NCBI GenBank assembly: GCA_965648905.1
Contig: CBFGIT010000046.1
Coordinates: 1-17,228 of the forward strand
From: a candidate division WOR-3 bacterium
Lineage (GTDB): Bacteria; Hydrothermota; Tepidihabitantia; Tepidihabitantales; Tepidihabitantaceae
Reading direction: 5' to 3'
Length of the DNA: 17,228 bases
The translations under genes and the position numbers were made by a program. Under the pieces are notes generated by a model that saw only the letters and a list, made by a program, of their open reading frames with translations, was not told the DNA's origin and did no database searches. How positions within the stretch are numbered: position 1 is the stretch's first letter; every line of letters begins with the position of its first letter. Positions 465 through 17,228 of the stretch are shown here, one piece after another.

Positions 465-3400
465 ATGTCTCTAACCCGGTTGTGTCTGGTTACAATGATT
501 GTGCCGGCGATAGCCGCTGCCGGCCTGGTTGATTCTCTCTGGTCGGCGCAATATGTTGGTTCGACACGCACCCAGTTCAACTCTGCGGCTGACGTTCTTG
601 TTGACCCGGGCACCGGCCACATCTACGTCTGCGGCTCGGGTGAACGCGAGTACAGCAACCAGACCGACATGCTGCTCGTCAAGTTCAACGAGAACGGCGA
701 CACGCTCTGGTCGCGAATTATCGGCGGCAATACCTGGAGTCAAGACGACATGGCTCATGCAATGGTCGCCGACTCAGCGGGCAACATCTACGTCGCCGGG
801 TTGACCGGCAACGTCGCTCCGCGCGGCCTCGATGCCACTTGGGCCAAGTACGCACCGGACGGAACCTTGCTCTGGATCAAGAAGAGCCTATGGCGGGACG
901 ACGATGCGGCATTCGACATCACGTTCGGCCCGGGCTCGGACCTGTACATCTGCGGTGCGCGCACCGACACCCTGCTCGGGCTGTCCGCGTTCATGGTGAT
1001 GCGCGTCAACCCGGACAGCGGCACCATCGTCTGGGCACGCTCATACGTCCTCGATACGCTGGCCGAGTCCCGCCGTAACCGGCCCCGTCGCGACCTGCAC
1101 CCGGATTTCTACGACGATTTCGACTATTGGGATAATTGCGCGAGCGCACTCGTTCCGACCCCGGCTGGCAACATCGCGGTCACCGGATTTGGTCTGTCTT
1201 ATGACTACGAGCGCGAGTGGTGGACCATGACTCTGACCCCGGCGGGCAACCAGATGTGGGCCACGACCCACCATCATCCGAATACGATTGACCACGACGA
1301 CGACGTGGCGTTCGACCTCGCAGTCGCCCGCACCGGCGAGGTGTATGTTGCCGGATTTGACTTCTTTCAGACTACAATCAGCGAGCAGGGATACAATTTT
1401 GCTGTGGCCAAGTACGACCTCGCCGGTCAGGAGGTCGCCCATCGCAGCATGAACGTTAGTGCTGAGAATGGTGATGACTATGCGTTCAGTCTCGCGCTTG
1501 ACGACTCGACACCGCAGAACGTCTATGTCACCGGCGTGCTTGCTTATCCGAGTCCACTGGACGAGCAGAACACGACGTTCAAGCTGAACGCTGACCTTCA
1601 GAACCGCTGGGGTGCGCTGGGCGCCAGCTACGGCACCAGCGGCGACGACCGGGGACTCAAGGTCATCCACCGCGACGGCAGAATCTACGTGGCCGGCCGC
1701 CGTGACCTGGACATGTCTCTCATCTGCTACACTACGGCCAATCCGGAGCTGGGCCAGTCCAAGGACACGTTGTGGACATTCACCAGCAGCGGCCCGGGCA
1801 ATCTCGAAGACGTTGGTGCGGCAGTGGCGGTGGTCGATACTGACCATGTCTATCTTGCCGGCCACAATCTGAACTACGGTACTCAGTACTGGACAAATCT
1901 CGTGCTAACTCGGCTGGCCCACGGAAACCGGGATCTGCTGGTGAGGCGCATCGTCACTCCCCGGGGCACGGTCAGCGAGGGCGATACGATTGCACCCGAG
2001 GCAGTGGTTGCGAACCAAGGCAGCCTTTCTGGCCGGTTCAAGGCTTTCATGTTGATCGGCTCCGGCTATGCCGACAGCGTCGCTGCCCAGCTTGCGCCAG
2101 GTGAGAGCTTGACCGTTCGGTTCCGCGACTGGGTCGCCCGTCCGATCGGCCGGTTTGCGGTTCGTTGCAGTGTCGGTGCCAGTTCGGACATCAACCCGGC
2201 CAACAACGTGCGGGTTGAAACCGTGCTCGTTGCCGGCCGTGACGTCGCCTGCCCGCGCATCGTTGCGCCGCTGGGCACGCTTGATTCCGGCGAAGTCGTC
2301 GTGCCGCGCGCCTGGGTCTGTAGCTACAGCAGTACGCCTGAGGCATTCCCGGTTCGGTTCACCGTCGGGTACGAATACGCCGACACGCAGTTGGTCAACC
2401 TGGCTCCCTTCGACAGCATACTGATTGGATTCCGGCCTTGGACGGCTCAGAACGTCGGACGCTGGGCTGTGACCTGTTCGACGATGCTGGGCGGCGACGT
2501 GAACCCGGCCAATGACCGTGCCGTTGATTCGGTGCGGGTCATGCAGGTAGAGGTGCGGGACGTTGGTGCGATTCGGGTGCTGGCTCCGGCTGAGACCACA
2601 CAACTTGGCAGCGCGGTCGTGCCGCGCGCCGTTTTCCGCAACTTCGGCAACGTGGCTGCATCATGTCCGGTGACGATGATGATTGAACCCGGCTACTTCG
2701 ACATACAGCACATAAGCGAGTTGCCGCCGGGAGAGTCAACCCTGGTCGAGTTCACTCCCTGGACGGCAGAGCCTCCGGGTCCGCTCGCGACCGCCACGTT
2801 CAGCGAGCTTCCGGGCGACGTCAATCCCGGGAACGACACTGCCGCCGGTTCGGTTTTCGTTCGGGTACGGGACGCCGCGGTCCGCAGCATCGTCGCCCCG
2901 CGTGGTGCGGTGGACTCAGGGACTCTCGTCACGCCCACCTCGACAGTCGCCAATTACGGCAACGCGACCGAGCGCATCCTGGTCCGGTTCCGAATCCATC
3001 GCTTGTCGTCCGATATCTCAGCTTCCGCGCCAGTCCTGTTTCATCGTTCCGCCCTCCTTCGTCCCCCTTCGTCTGTCCTTTTTGAGACGAGTCAGGACCA
3101 GGTGTACGAGGACAGTGCCGAAGTGACACTCGCACCGGGGGAGACGCTTGCCACCGGCTTCCGACAATGGTCCGCAAGTCCCTCGGGCAGCTACCGGGCC
3201 GAGTCGTTCTCGCTCCTTGACGAAGACATGAATCCGGCAAACGATACCGCAACGGGCAGTTTCACCGTAGTTCGTCGGCTGCATGACGTCGGGGTGACTG
3301 CAATCCTTGCTCCGCCCGATACACTGGACACCGGCGCAACCGTAGTCCCCGCGGCCGTGGTCCGGAATTCGGGTACCGACCCGGAGTCCTTCCGGGTACG

Positions 3401-3911
3401 GTTCACCATCGGTGCGTTCTACCAGGCTGAACGTGACATCATGCTCTATCCAGGAATGAGCGATACGATCGAGTTCGACCCCTGGGTTGCCGGTCCGGTC
3501 GGGATTCATGCTGCTCGTTGCTCGACCATGCTATCGGGCGATGCCAACCCGGCTAACGACACCATGAGCCGACGAGTGGTCGTTCTACCGCCGCAGGGCA
3601 GCGCTGAGCCCAACGCGGCACTCGGCGTTCCATCCGACTTCCTGCTTGACCGGGGTCGGCCTAACCCGTTCCGCGGCAGCACATCGGTTCGCTTCGGGCT
3701 GCCTGCGACCGCCATCGTAACCGTGCGGGTTTACTCGTCGTCCGGCCGTCTGGTCAGGACTCTGGTTTGCGGAACCTGCCGTCCAGGCTACTACCACGCG
3801 GTCTGGAACGGCAGAGACAACGATGGCGTTCCGGCTCCGCCGGGCATGTACTTCTGCCGAATGGAGTCGGACGGTCGCCGGTATGTGACACCGCTGGTCA
3901 TGACAAGGTAG
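465..3911 (+). CDS. Secreted modular protein: signal peptide, SBBP-like beta-propeller, five CARDB/Ig-like repeats, C-terminal FlgD-Ig/T9SS type A-like sorting domain
   Basis: 1148-aa ORF with a hydrophobic N-terminus. Eight blades of the form DD.A..(I/L)..D..GN(I/V)YV.G....D....K(Y/F)...G..LW. Five repeats of D(V/L/A)...I.AP.G....G..V.P.A.V.N.G....F.VRF.IG..Y....LAPGE...F..W......CS....D.NP.ND. C-terminus PNPF..STSVRFGL....V.V.VYSSSGRLVRTL......G.....WNGRD.DG...PPGMYF.R. Confidence 0.85.
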   Translation: MSLTRLCLVTMIVPAIAAAGLVDSLWSAQYVGSTRTQFNSAADVLVDPGTGHIYVCGSGEREYSNQTDMLLVKFNENGDTLWSRIIGGNTWSQDDMAHAMVADSAGNIYVAGLTGNVAPRGLDATWAKYAPDGTLLWIKKSLWRDDDAAFDITFGPGSDLYICGARTDTLLGLSAFMVMRVNPDSGTIVWARSYVLDTLAESRRNRPRRDLHPDFYDDFDYWDNCASALVPTPAGNIAVTGFGLSYDYEREWWTMTLTPAGNQMWATTHHHPNTIDHDDDVAFDLAVARTGEVYVAGFDFFQTTISEQGYNFAVAKYDLAGQEVAHRSMNVSAENGDDYAFSLALDDSTPQNVYVTGVLAYPSPLDEQNTTFKLNADLQNRWGALGASYGTSGDDRGLKVIHRDGRIYVAGRRDLDMSLICYTTANPELGQSKDTLWTFTSSGPGNLEDVGAAVAVVDTDHVYLAGHNLNYGTQYWTNLVLTRLAHGNRDLLVRRIVTPRGTVSEGDTIAPEAVVANQGSLSGRFKAFMLIGSGYADSVAAQLAPGESLTVRFRDWVARPIGRFAVRCSVGASSDINPANNVRVETVLVAGRDVACPRIVAPLGTLDSGEVVVPRAWVCSYSSTPEAFPVRFTVGYEYADTQLVNLAPFDSILIGFRPWTAQNVGRWAVTCSTMLGGDVNPANDRAVDSVRVMQVEVRDVGAIRVLAPAETTQLGSAVVPRAVFRNFGNVAASCPVTMMIEPGYFDIQHISELPPGESTLVEFTPWTAEPPGPLATATFSELPGDVNPGNDTAAGSVFVRVRDAAVRSIVAPRGAVDSGTLVTPTSTVANYGNATERILVRFRIHRLSSDISASAPVLFHRSALLRPPSSVLFETSQDQVYEDSAEVTLAPGETLATGFRQWSASPSGSYRAESFSLLDEDMNPANDTATGSFTVVRRLHDVGVTAILAPPDTLDTGATVVPAAVVRNSGTDPESFRVRFTIGAFYQAERDIMLYPGMSDTIEFDPWVAGPVGIHAARCSTMLSGDANPANDTMSRRVVVLPPQGSAEPNAALGVPSDFLLDRGRPNPFRGSTSVRFGLPATAIVTVRVYSSSGRLVRTLVCGTCRPGYYHAVWNGRDNDGVPAPPGMYFCRMESDGRRYVTPLVMTR
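1932..3580 (+). repeat. Five tandem ~103-106-aa CARDB/Ig-like domain repeats (starts ~1932, 2241, 2559, 2871, 3285)
   Basis: Units begin DLLV/DVAC/DVGA/DAAV/DVGV and end D.NP.N(D/N). Spacings are 309, 318, 312 and 414 nt, so the fourth unit carries an insertion. Confidence 0.8.
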
Positions 3912-13806: not shown

Positions 13807-16800
13807 TCAGCGGTTGCTGCGCTCGCGGCGATTCTCGTCAAGCGCGGGTGGGCGCGGGATGAGCACAGAGCCCGCATCTGGATGAGACATGACCATGAAT
13901 GACCAGATGGCTTGTTGCAAGTTGGACCAGCCTACTTTGTTCCTTGCCCTGACGCGCCAGTAGTAGGTGGTGTCGTCAAGTTCGGCAACCGGCCGAATCG
14001 TATCTGCGAACGTGGAGTCGTCAAGGAAGAGGTCGGTGAAGCCTGAGTCCCGGGCAAGCTGAATCCAGTAGTGGCGGCACCAGATGCCGGCTCGCCAGAT
14101 AAGGTTGGTGTTGCTCGTGGTGATAACCGTGTCGTCGGGCGGGAACAGGCGGATGACCGTGTCGGGCAGTGAAGTGAGGACGCAGAACCAGCGGGGTGAG
14201 GTGCTCCAGTTGGACCAGCCGGCAAGGTTACGTGCTCGCACCCGCCAATAGGTCCGGGAGTAGTCTGGAAGGCTCTCAGCACGGGTCGTGTCGATGAGGA
14301 GCGAGTCGTTGACAAACGGTGAGCCGAATCCCGGGTCGTCGTCAAGTTGGAGCTGATAGCGGATGACATCGGTACCTTTGTGCCAGGCGAGTGCGACCGG
14401 GTTCGCTGTGACCGTGTCGCCTGGGGCCGGCAAGAGCAGGACAGGCGCAGGTGGAACCTGGGTGAGTATACGTACCGACCAAGCGCTTGCCTGCCAACTA
14501 CCCCAGCCTTTCTTGTTTTGGGCCCGAACCCGCCAGTACCAGGTCGTGTCGGTCAGGCCTGCAGTAAGCCGGGTGGTGTCGGTGATGATGGAGTCGCTCA
14601 AGTAGATGTCGGCGAAGAACGAGTCAACTGCGAGCTGGAGCCAGTACTTTCTAACCCAGGTTGCCGAGCGCCAGCCAAAGCGTACTGAATCGGTGGTCAC
14701 GGTTGTGTCGTCGGGCGGCTCAAGCCGGACGAGAGTCGGCGGGACGGTAGTCAAGACCGCGTAGCTGCGGACTGCGCTCCAACTCGACCAGCCGACCAGG
14801 TTGCGGGCAGCAACGCGCCAGTGAGTCACCGAGTAGTCAGGCCGGGAGTAAGGGAACGTCGTGTCGGTGAGGGTGGAGTCGTCGACAAGAACTGGACTGA
14901 AGCCCGGGTTGTCGGCGAGTTGGACCCGGTAGCGGGATGCGGTTGCGCTCGTGCGCCATGTCATCTGGACCGGGCTGGCAGTGAGTGTGTCGGCTTGAGC
15001 CGGCAGAACCAGGCCTGGAGCAGCCGGGACCTGGGTCTGGGTGTGGAATCGACGCAGTCCGGGCTGCCAGTTGCCCCAGCCTTTCTTGTTCTGGGCCCGA
15101 ACCCGCCAGTAGCAGGTGGTATCGAAGAGCGCGCCGGACAGCCGCTCGGTGTCAGCGAGTGCTGAGTCGCGGACGACAACGGTCGCGAACGTTGAGTCGT
15201 AACCGAGTTCGACCCAGTACTTGCGCGGCCAGGTGATTGACCGCCAGACCAGTTGGGTTGAGCTTGAGGTGATGGTCGTGTCTGGCGGCGGGTAGACCGG
15301 CTGACCCGGGTCAGGCAGCGTCGTCACGACCGCGTACCAGCGGGTTGAACTCCAGCTTGACCAGCCGGCAAGGTTGCGTGAGCGGACCCGCCAGTAGGTG
15401 ACCGAGTAGTCGGGCAGCGAGCGGCTGAAGGTTGTGTCGGTCAGGGTCGAGTCGTCAACGAACGGGTTAGAGAAGCCCGGGTTGTCGGCCAGTTGCACTC
15501 GATAGCGCAGGGCATTGTGCTGGGAACGCCAGACCATCAGAACCGGGTTGTCGGTGAGCGTGTCGCCGAGCGCGGGCAGGACGAGTACGGGTGGCCCGGG
15601 CGGCTGGGTCAGGAGTGTGAATCGACGCAGGGTGGTCTGCCAGTTGGACCAGCCTTTCTTGTTCCGGGCCCGGGTCCGCCAGTACCAGGTCGAGTCGGCC
15701 AGTGACCCGGTCAGCCGGAACGTGTCAGCCACAAGCGAGTCGTTGAGCGCGAGCGAACCGAACAGCGAATCGGCAGAGACCTGGACGTGGTAGGAGCGGA
15801 TCCAGTTGGCGCGGTTCCAGTAGAGCGTGGTCTGGGCCGCGACGATGGTCGTGTCGTGCGGCGGCCAGGTCCGAATGAGCACTGGCGGCACCGTGGTCAC
15901 GACGCCGAACGAACGACTCGAGCTCCAGTTGGACCAGCCCGCGGCATTTCTTGCCGCAACGCGCCACCAGGTGTACGAGTAGTCGGTCAGGCTGCGGCTG
16001 AACAGCGTTTCGGTCACGGTTGAGTCGTCGACAAACGGCGCGAGGAACGACGGGTTGTCGGCCAGTTGGATGCGGTACCGGGTCGCGGTTGCGCTCGTGC
16101 GCCAGTGCATGAGCACCGGGTTGTCGGTCAGGGTGTCGTCGTTGACCGGCAGTACCAGAACCGGGACCGGCGGAACCAGAGTCTGAACGCAAAGGCGCCA
16201 GCCCGAGCTTTGCCAAATGCCCCAGCCTTTGCGGTTCTGGGCTGAGACCCGCCAGTAGTAGGTCGTGTCCGCCAGTCCGGACACGAAACGCGCCGTGTCG
16301 GTTACTCCGGAGTCATTGACGTAGAACACCGTGAAGAGCGAATCGTAGGCCAGTTGGAACCAGTACTTGCGGGCCCAGGGCAGGCTGTGCCAGACAAAGG
16401 TCGGGCTCTGGGTTGCGACTGTGGTGTCATGCGGCGGCGAGATGCGGCTGACCGGACCTGGGACTGAAGTAACCACGCAGAACCAGCGCGGCGAAGCGCT
16501 CCAGTTACTCCAACCGGCAAGGTTGCGTGCCCGTACCCGCCAGTAGGTCATGGAGTAGTCTGGAAGGCTTTCGGCACGGACGGTGTCGGTGACGAGGGAG
16601 TCGTTGACAAACGGCGAGCCGAATCCCGGGTCGTCGTCCAGTTGGACCTGGTAGCGCAGGATACCGGCCATGCTGCGCCAGTACATCCGCACCGGGTTCG
16701 TGGTCAGGGTGTCGCCGGCTGCGGGCAGGGTCAGGGTTGGCGCGGGCGGCACGGTGGTGAGCACACGCAGAATCCACGCCTCGCCTTGCCACTGGCCCCA

Positions 16801-17228
16801 GCCGCGTTTGTTTTCGGCCCGCACCCGCCAGTAGTAGACAGTGTCGGACAATGAAGTAACCAGTCGCTGGGTAGTCGTGATGCTCGTATCGCGCAGGAAA
16901 ATGTGGCTGAACCCGGCATCGTAGGCGATTTCGAGCGCGTAGCGCCGGGCCCACTGGACCGGCAGCCACGTGAACAGGGCCTGGTTCGCGGTGATGGTTG
17001 TGTCGTGCGCTGGTGAAACCAGAGTCACCGGGCCGGGAACCTGGGTGACAACGCCGAACCAGCGCACCGGACTTGACCACGGGCCCCAGTCGAACAGGTT
17101 GCGCGCACACACCCGCCACCAGGTGATAGAGTAATCGGGCAGCGAGCGGAGGAAGTTGGTATCGGTCAGGGTTGAGTCGTCGGCGATGAGCGAGGTGAAA
17201 TCAGGGTCGCTGGCCAGTTGAATCCGGT
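13807..17228 (-). CDS. Large extracellular protein of tandem alternating fibronectin-type-III-like domains (5' partial; start lies beyond the window end)
   Basis: The frame stays open to the window edge (RIQLASDPDFTSLIADDSTLTDTNFLRSLPDYSITWWRVCARN...), so 17112 is not the true start. 11 complete and 1 partial ~95-aa units with pattern P..P.L..P....T......W.......Y..Q...D..F.......T......L.....YWRVRA.N..GW..W. Confidence 0.85.
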   Translation of the reverse strand, partial: RIQLASDPDFTSLIADDSTLTDTNFLRSLPDYSITWWRVCARNLFDWGPWSSPVRWFGVVTQVPGPVTLVSPAHDTTITANQALFTWLPVQWARRYALEIAYDAGFSHIFLRDTSITTTQRLVTSLSDTVYYWRVRAENKRGWGQWQGEAWILRVLTTVPPAPTLTLPAAGDTLTTNPVRMYWRSMAGILRYQVQLDDDPGFGSPFVNDSLVTDTVRAESLPDYSMTYWRVRARNLAGWSNWSASPRWFCVVTSVPGPVSRISPPHDTTVATQSPTFVWHSLPWARKYWFQLAYDSLFTVFYVNDSGVTDTARFVSGLADTTYYWRVSAQNRKGWGIWQSSGWRLCVQTLVPPVPVLVLPVNDDTLTDNPVLMHWRTSATATRYRIQLADNPSFLAPFVDDSTVTETLFSRSLTDYSYTWWRVAARNAAGWSNWSSSRSFGVVTTVPPVLIRTWPPHDTTIVAAQTTLYWNRANWIRSYHVQVSADSLFGSLALNDSLVADTFRLTGSLADSTWYWRTRARNKKGWSNWQTTLRRFTLLTQPPGPPVLVLPALGDTLTDNPVLMVWRSQHNALRYRVQLADNPGFSNPFVDDSTLTDTTFSRSLPDYSVTYWRVRSRNLAGWSSWSSTRWYAVVTTLPDPGQPVYPPPDTTITSSSTQLVWRSITWPRKYWVELGYDSTFATVVVRDSALADTERLSGALFDTTCYWRVRAQNKKGWGNWQPGLRRFHTQTQVPAAPGLVLPAQADTLTASPVQMTWRTSATASRYRVQLADNPGFSPVLVDDSTLTDTTFPYSRPDYSVTHWRVAARNLVGWSSWSAVRSYAVLTTVPPTLVRLEPPDDTTVTTDSVRFGWRSATWVRKYWLQLAVDSFFADIYLSDSIITDTTRLTAGLTDTTWYWRVRAQNKKGWGSWQASAWSVRILTQVPPAPVLLLPAPGDTVTANPVALAWHKGTDVIRYQLQLDDDPGFGSPFVNDSLLIDTTRAESLPDYSRTYWRVRARNLAGWSNWSTSPRWFCVLTSLPDTVIRLFPPDDTVITTSNTNLIWRAGIWCRHYWIQLARDSGFTDLFLDDSTFADTIRPVAELDDTTYYWRVRARNKVGWSNLQQAIWSFMVMSHPDAGSVLIPRPPALDENRRERSNR
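13890..17228 (-). repeat. Alternating A/B intragenic domain repeats (~574 nt per AB pair)
   Basis: A units: GDTLT.NPV.M.WR, QL(A/D)D(N/D)PGF, SLPDYS.TYWRV.ARNLAGWS.WS. B units: PP.DTT, W.RKYW.QL.YDS.F, L.DTT.YWRVRAQNKKGWG.WQ. Confidence 0.85.

Follow-up and report, generated by a model that had tools for sequence, protein, structure and literature searches.

A predicted lipoprotein of alternating FN3 domains in a candidate division WOR-3 bacterium and its possible role as an O-glycosylated surface rod

The window analysed here is the 17,228-nt contig CBFGIT010000046.1 (assembly GCA_965648905.1) of a candidate division WOR-3 bacterium, taken over its entire length (contig C46 of the source genome, G000). 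On its minus strand, cut by the contig end, lies the 3′ part of a giant gene whose product consists of FN3 domains of two alternating types, A and B. With confidence that we put at about even, the whole product is read as a genus-restricted, lipid-anchored and non-catalytic FN3 rod, probably densely O-glycosylated, which would act as a passive surface coat, a spacer or a weak adhesin. This reading is drawn from sequences and from models predicted from them.

The open reading frame (ORF) in the window encodes 1,139 aa, arranged as 12 units of the FN3 fold (95-96 aa) and, at the end, a tail of 24 aa. An initial annotation, made from the letters of the window, had described at least 12 units in the order A(partial)-B-A-B to A-B and a two-domain repeat of about 191 aa; both descriptions were borne out, the AB module measuring 191-192 aa. 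Units of like type are 53-77% (A-A) and 39-55% (B-B) identical, while A and B share 27-42%. Adjacent units are 24-40% identical compared to 39-70% for next-but-one units, and the period-2 signal (lag-2 minus lag-1 identity) is 0.22, with a permutation p of 0.002. A maximum-likelihood tree was built from 84 units of five sequences (the two pieces found in the source genome and three orthologs); in it, all 35 A units split off with an ultrafast bootstrap (UFBoot) of 94 and all 34 B units with 98. Hence, the two types form separate clades, a point on which the initial annotation had made its proposal depend. The motifs that it had assigned to each type exist as consensus and are not universal, NPV.M.WR being present in 3 of the 5 full A units of the window and W.RKYW in 3 of the 6 B units. 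The features of the gene, all on the minus strand, are as follows:

13807..17226 (-): 3′ part of the giant lipoprotein gene, 1,139 aa, cut by the contig end and 5′-open (ORF call)
17041..17226 (-): unit 1, partial A, 62 aa
16753..17040 (-): unit 2, B
16465..16752 (-): unit 3, A
16177..16464 (-): unit 4, B
15892..16176 (-): unit 5, A
15604..15891 (-): unit 6, B; near here one AB module is absent from the ortholog P0002
15319..15603 (-): unit 7, A
15031..15318 (-): unit 8, B; units 8 and 9 have no counterpart in the ortholog P0003
14746..15030 (-): unit 9, A
14458..14745 (-): unit 10, B
14170..14457 (-): unit 11, A
13882..14169 (-): unit 12, B
13807..13881 (-): Pro/Arg-rich tail of 24 aa and stop; unconserved between orthologs, no type IX secretion system (T9SS) C-terminal domain

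The ratio of nonsynonymous to synonymous substitution rates (dN/dS) of this part of the gene is 0.17, indicating purifying selection. Assembly collapse or a tandem artefact at the DNA level was considered and rejected, the longest exact repeat being 23 nt and the units grouping by position across species.

The complete gene, whose recovery with its N-terminal domains had been proposed, was obtained as an ortholog from another genome of the same genus (G001), where a single frame of 2,611 aa encodes a lipoprotein signal, one Big_7 domain, five mixed FN3 units, ten AB pairs and a short tail. The window ORF corresponds position by position to units A9-B20 of this ortholog, with 76% identity over 1,137 aa. 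In the source genome, contig C57 ends in a 3′-open ORF for a lipoprotein signal, a Big_7 domain and six FN3 units, five of them mixed and the sixth an A unit that matches A1 of the complete ortholog; a GGAGG ribosome-binding site precedes its ATG. We infer that the C57 and C46 ORFs are two ends of one gene because P0002, a single ORF from a candidate division WOR-3 bacterium, closely matches both pieces (over 615 aa of the C57 ORF the identity is 91%; for parts of the window protein it is 94% and 91%). No terminal overlap was found between C57 and C46, the middle piece is absent from the source assembly, and the contigs of three runs contain no bridge. The lipobox FSA|C, with the Cys at residue 27, is conserved in the three N-termini, as expected of a bacterial lipoprotein signal. 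This predicted anchor lies outside the window and was missed by the initial annotation.

The number of AB modules varies between orthologs (10 in the G001 protein, 9 each in P0002 and P0003), different modules having been lost. Unit 13 of P0002 is a hybrid of window units 5 and 7, situated at the junction of the lost module. A close ortholog was found in 2 of the 44 genomes of the family, both from a single one of its 15 genera, and in the database clusters P0002 and P0003. A search of genome contigs for relatives gave nine loci, just one of which exceeds 35% identity. The gene neighbours differ between the two genomes, with glnA and a Kelch protein in the source genome and an S8 peptidase, cvpA, cobA, meaB and a mutase in the other. 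Pfam and NCBIfam searches of the window protein and its orthologs revealed no catalytic domain, and NCBIfam returned no match for four proteins. Hence, no full-length match to a characterised family was found, which leaves that part of the earlier claim of an uncharacterised family standing, while the unit itself is a very common FN3 subtype. Neither PF18962 nor PF13860, the T9SS C-terminal domains, matched P0001, the G001 protein or P0003, and the last FN3 unit of the orthologs is followed by an unconserved tail of 20-45 aa. A literature search found no account of this protein. A stretch of about 1 kb upstream of the lipoprotein gene (L001 4592-5633) has no long ORF and no Rfam match; downstream, neither a promoter-like site nor a minus-strand terminator-like site was seen.

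The FN3 assignment is supported by the Pfam fn3 model, which gives the G001 protein 69 bits and the window part 25.4 bits against a cut-off of 25. The AlphaFold model of an ABAB stretch, built from a 13-row alignment, is all-beta with a predicted local distance difference test (pLDDT) of 91 and a predicted template modelling score (pTM) of 0.61; from a single sequence, one AB pair reached a pLDDT of 33. Structure prediction of AB-AB followed by Foldseek had been suggested as a check, and all top structural matches (Foldseek, VIA) are FN3 tandems, with a Z of 15.6 and a root-mean-square deviation of 2.3-2.7 for single domains. Pfam also matched, weakly, some Ig domains of enzymes acting on carbohydrates (Ig_Rha78A_N, DUF4962), and the ESM Atlas gave generic Ig_Rha78A_N/fn3 clusters of low recognition value.

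The initial annotation called the repeat very rich in Trp and Arg. This holds for Trp, which at 6.1% is the highest among 1,221 proteins longer than 300 aa in our own gene calls (mean 1.5%), and not for Arg, which at 8.3% lies near the proteome mean of 7.9%, though with 7.4 Arg per unit the protein is well above the median of 3.2 in homologous arrays. Most of the conserved Trp residues occupy FN3 core positions or a WSxWS-like motif. This motif, W-[SG]-x-W-[SQT] on strand G, is present in every one of the 35 A units, in 27 of the 34 B units and in none of the 15 mixed units; exact WSxWS occurs in 19 of the 35 A units and in none of the 34 B units. Among 2,164 other units of the family, 6% carry WxxW, and one other bacterial array (P0025) carries a WSxWS-like motif in 13 of its 14 units. 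In the FN3 domains of type I cytokine receptors, the WSXWS motif forms a Trp-Arg ladder, as described in passages of PMC12990085. The Trp richness is thus largely explained by the FN3 core and the WSxWS-like motif, so that sugar binding is not needed to account for it. Neither core nor ladder explains an invariant B-specific Trp located just before strand C (W126, W317), which, judged from the alignment, is the likeliest residue to serve in binding or at an interface.

The most conserved columns of the units are D-[S/T] pairs, which the initial annotation missed. According to passages of PMC12871550, D-(S/T)-(A/L/V/I/M/T) is the motif of general O-glycosylation in Bacteroidota. A units bear 3.0 D-[S/T] sites each and B units 4.9; the mature G001 chain contains 99, of which 74 have A, I, L, V, M or T in third position. 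In the window protein, D-[S/T] is 5.8-fold over expectation, and its density ranks second among 1,711 proteins. Between the window protein and the G001 ortholog, all 46 D-[S/T] are kept, while of the remaining residues 27 of 36 D and 133 of 185 S/T are; three further comparisons gave 35/37, 19/22 and 60/68. In the sequon columns, S and T interchange beneath an invariant D.

This enrichment extends to the exported proteins of the source genome. Among 2,316 proteins of our own gene calls, sorted into heuristic localisation classes, the observed/expected ratio of D-[S/T] is 2.56 [2.44-2.70] for signal-peptide-like proteins (n=524), 3.10 for lipobox-like proteins (n=51) and 2.42 for proteins with a T9SS C-terminal domain (n=68), compared to 0.91 for cytoplasmic P-loop proteins (n=79). 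Hence, the motif is enriched in exported and not in cytoplasmic proteins (2.4-3.1 vs 0.91), as expected of Bacteroidota-type substrates. Controls with Glu, with Asn or with the reversed order are about 1 or below; the enrichment is therefore specific for order and for Asp, and it prefers a hydrophobic third residue. In four related genomes, exported proteins reach 2.4-5.9 for D-[S/T]-[AILVMT] (loci L037-L053, small samples). Fold-matched homologs from Chloroflexota (0.88, n=4) and Planctomycetota (1.01, n=2) are not enriched, Gemmatirosa is intermediate (1.78), and named homologs give 2.2 in Ignavibacteria (n=11, range 0.17-3.9) and 2.0 in other Bacteroidota (n=8, range 0.11-3.7). The loci from Treponema, Cupriavidus, Ignavibacteria and Bacteroidales were too small to be weighed. 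Separately, the arrays P0049, P0068 and P0106 (Adhaeribacter, Ignavibacteriales) contain D-[S/T] at 0.11-0.39 of expectation, which may reflect sequon avoidance.

Concerning the machinery, PMC12871550 states that the O-glycosyltransferase of Bacteroidota is undiscovered and that conservation of the LFG-type (metG-wzx-glycosyltransferase) locus does not extend to the phylum as a whole; its text names Bacteroidota and Fibrobacterota and not WOR-3, although Fig. 2A may include WOR-3 genera. A search for STT3 stayed below cut-off. The 3-Mb genome contains 14 matches to the GT-C glycosyltransferase family PMT_2, a family that gave no signal in the B. thetaiotaomicron control. By title and abstract, none of the papers listed by a literature search on glycosylation in WOR-3 was related, and no discovery of an O-glycosyltransferase was found among the papers listed for 2025-26.

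Taken together, these observations are consistent with a lipoprotein of about 2,600 aa, with a type II signal peptide and Cys, a Big_7 domain, five mixed FN3 units, 9-10 AB pairs and a short tail, that would be lipidated at its N-terminal Cys and project from the outer membrane as a rod. An FN3 domain is about 3.5-4 nm long; with 26 domains, the rod would therefore measure very roughly 90-100 nm. The alternation would have arisen by duplication of a two-domain block and would persist because only like units recombine with each other and because domain-swap misfolding is limited when neighbours are unlike. The strand-G motif W-[SG]-x-W-[SQT], facing Arg residues on strand F, would stabilise each domain in the manner of the WSXWS Trp-Arg ladder. 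Each A unit would carry O-glycans of the Bacteroidota type at about 3 sites and each B unit at about 5, which for a mature chain amounts to 74-99 depending on the motif definition, making the product a bottle-brush surface filament that may act as a passive hydrated coat, a spacer or a weak multivalent adhesin and not as an enzyme. Somewhat short of even confidence, and hence tentatively, we extend this to the lineage: WOR-3 bacteria would possess Bacteroidota-type D-[S/T] O-glycosylation, and this genus would build a mucin-like bottle-brush, in which a lipid-tethered rod of about 100 nm bears some 75-100 glycans at fixed positions of a two-domain repeat whose domains are braced by the WSxWS ladder.

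Several results weigh against this reading. Only one of five AlphaFold models was confident (pLDDT 91 vs 60-67), so that, of the rigid extracellular filament proposed by the initial annotation, the elongated, exported and non-catalytic FN3 rod is supported and the rigidity is not. The Phe at position -3 of the lipobox is non-canonical, and about 708 aa between the ends of C57 and C46 are absent from the assembly. One invariant Asp of the A units precedes Tyr and forms no sequon. The crude cytoplasmic-like class of the source genome (n=1,106) is itself at 1.3-1.4 (1.43). The positive controls from Bacteroidota plasmids are not enriched in signal-peptide-like proteins (Flammeovirga, 0.55, n=24; Hymenobacter, 1.22, n=15), depletion (0.11-0.58) is seen in three named homologs from Bacteroidota, and the S. 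meliloti negative control, at 0.91, is small (n=15 only). Inspection by eye of the genes beside metG, whose neighbours resemble tatD, ksgA and peptidyl-prolyl isomerases, recognised neither wzx nor a glycosyltransferase gene. Furthermore, D-[S/T] occupies three of the same columns in 26-33% of other family units and could be structural there. That last point, with the unenriched controls and the lack of a recognised locus of known type, is also what favours the same rod without glycans, the D-[S/T] pairs being a structural (Asx/ST-turn) habit of the lineage. We consider this distinctly unlikely, as the enrichment spans the proteome, is restricted to exported classes, depends on Asp and on the order of the pair and favours a hydrophobic third residue, and as fold-matched proteins of Chloroflexota and Planctomycetota lack it.

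A multivalent carbohydrate- or surface-binding adhesin, in which each AB pair offers an aromatic platform like that of surface glycan-binding lipoproteins, would account for the highest Trp fraction of the proteome, for the B-specific invariant Trp, for the weak matches to Ig domains of carbohydrate enzymes and for the lipoprotein anchor. The core or WSxWS-like position of most Trp residues, the lack of a carbohydrate-binding module or a sugar-utilisation gene nearby in either genome, where the neighbours differ, and the use of related arrays as stalks between enzymes and T9SS signals make it unlikely and weaken the initial proposal of a polysaccharide-binding adhesin. A scaffold lipoprotein facing the periplasm, which would tether or space envelope layers, appears very doubtful: the normal periplasm is several-fold narrower than the inferred length of the rod, the ortholog is confined to one of the 15 genera, and the Pfam search found no peptidoglycan-binding domain. 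In its favour, most O-glycosylated proteins of Bacteroidota are periplasmic or membrane proteins, as stated in part of PMC12871550. The heavy predicted glycosylation also recalls the Tannerella S-layer proteins mentioned in the same source, and the regular repeat would likewise suit a subunit self-assembling into an S-layer or sheath lattice. Such a role is nonetheless highly improbable given the narrow distribution, the variable module number, the stalk function of related arrays in secreted enzymes and the absence of an SLH or T9SS attachment signal; nothing was found in support of the S-layer or sheath component first suggested.

The initial annotation regarded the alternating module as the best candidate for novel biology in the window. 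The FN3 unit family has 37,402 representatives at E<=0.001. Among 113 arrays of at least 6 units, 18 have period 2, 13 period 3 and 1 period 4; four of the 18 are this protein and its orthologs, leaving 14 of 109 others, and a second set gave 13 of 121 with period 2 and 3 of 121 with period 3. Because period-2 order recurs in about a tenth of related arrays, alternation is, on sequence comparison, an ordinary outcome of two-domain (segmental) duplication in a common domain family, and the claim of novelty does not hold for it. Approximately unbiased (AU) tests of an independent against a shared origin gave p=0.22, 0.075 and 0.60 for the constrained trees (2,000 replicates only); a shared origin with the Ignavibacteriales-type pair, at 0.075, is not rejected. 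In related genomes, two peptidases of the M14 and C1 families have stalks of alternating FN3 domains that are built from another type of pair and precede a T9SS-type C-terminus (L026 2941-9282, L027 3-5159). The loss of whole AB modules and the hybrid A unit of P0002 are as in-phase recombination predicts. Passages of PMC8201768 and PMC4660218 report that similar adjacent domains are avoided, and the low identity between neighbours (24-40%) fits such avoidance.

As an alternating FN3 array, the protein is of minor importance, higher-order repeats being frequent in this domain family. If the proposed glycosylation is true, this protein would serve as a reporter substrate of unusual density for D-[S/T] O-glycosylation, and it would clearly exemplify a bacterial surface filament that is both folded and regularly glycosylated. 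Glycosylation of these sites would also extend to one more uncultured phylum a system that has so far been studied in Bacteroidota, giving a wider phylogenetic profile for the transferase, toward which a comparison of motif-enriched genomes (Bacteroidota, Fibrobacterota, WOR-3) could point.

The host is diderm, with lpxC, sprA and porV-like genes, and its genome has 111 matches to the T9SS C-terminal domain PF18962, none of them on this protein; a literature search found no paper on type IX secretion in WOR-3. Elsewhere in the window, 465-3911 (+) encodes a secreted protein of 1,148 aa that is rich in D-[S/T] and carries beta-propeller repeats, several CARDB-like Ig units and an FlgD_ig C-terminus (T9SS-type cargo). 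The segment 4008-6661 (+) contains rpsP, a KH-domain gene, trmD, rplS, rnhB and a gene resembling YraN, all named by reading their translations; rimM is absent between the KH-domain gene and trmD. In another genome, locus L025 (contig G033:C407) encodes a 15-unit FN3 array with few D-[S/T], the C-terminus of which resembles that of an Ignavibacteriaceae protein in L062; this contig may be foreign to its bin.

Among known systems, the FN3 tandems of titin and of receptor phosphatases are the best PDB matches in sequence and in structure, and a super-repeat domain order is common to both; these proteins are eukaryotic, 12-20% identical, and alike at the level of the fold only. The cytokine receptors treated in parts of PMC12990085 share W-S-x-W-S on strand G and Arg residues on strand F; here, the motif is present in nearly every A and B unit and there is no receptor architecture, so that the likeness, judged from sequence, is probably convergent. 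Partial WS-xS motifs in bifidobacterial FN3 domains (passages of PMC8430577) also resemble the strand-G motif. Closer are the tandem FN3 arrays (PF00041 / PF25788 Ig_Rha78A_N-like) of Ignavibacteria, Bacteroidota, Chloroflexota and WOR-3-related genomes, which have the same unit of about 96 aa at about 30% identity in 6-37 copies. Many of these have a T9SS signal at their end or include an enzyme, whereas this protein has neither and carries a predicted N-terminal lipid anchor; in other arrays, whose units score at most about 80 bits, neither its A type nor its B type was found. With the periscope proteins (SasG, Rib, Sgo_0707), as presented in parts of PMC8201768, it shares the design of a surface rod of tandem domains whose repeat number varies between strains, although only 9 vs 10 modules were seen between close relatives. 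The periscope screen used at least 80% repeat identity, compared to a maximum of 77% here and a longest exact DNA repeat of 23 nt, and the full-length orthologs contain only Big_7 and FN3-type units and no distal ligand-binding domain. Finally, compared to the O-glycosylation of Bacteroidota, as far as it is laid out in passages of PMC12871550, the host belongs to WOR-3 and no metG-wzx locus was recognised; the likeness lies in the same motif, in its enrichment in exported proteins and in the hydrophobic third residue.

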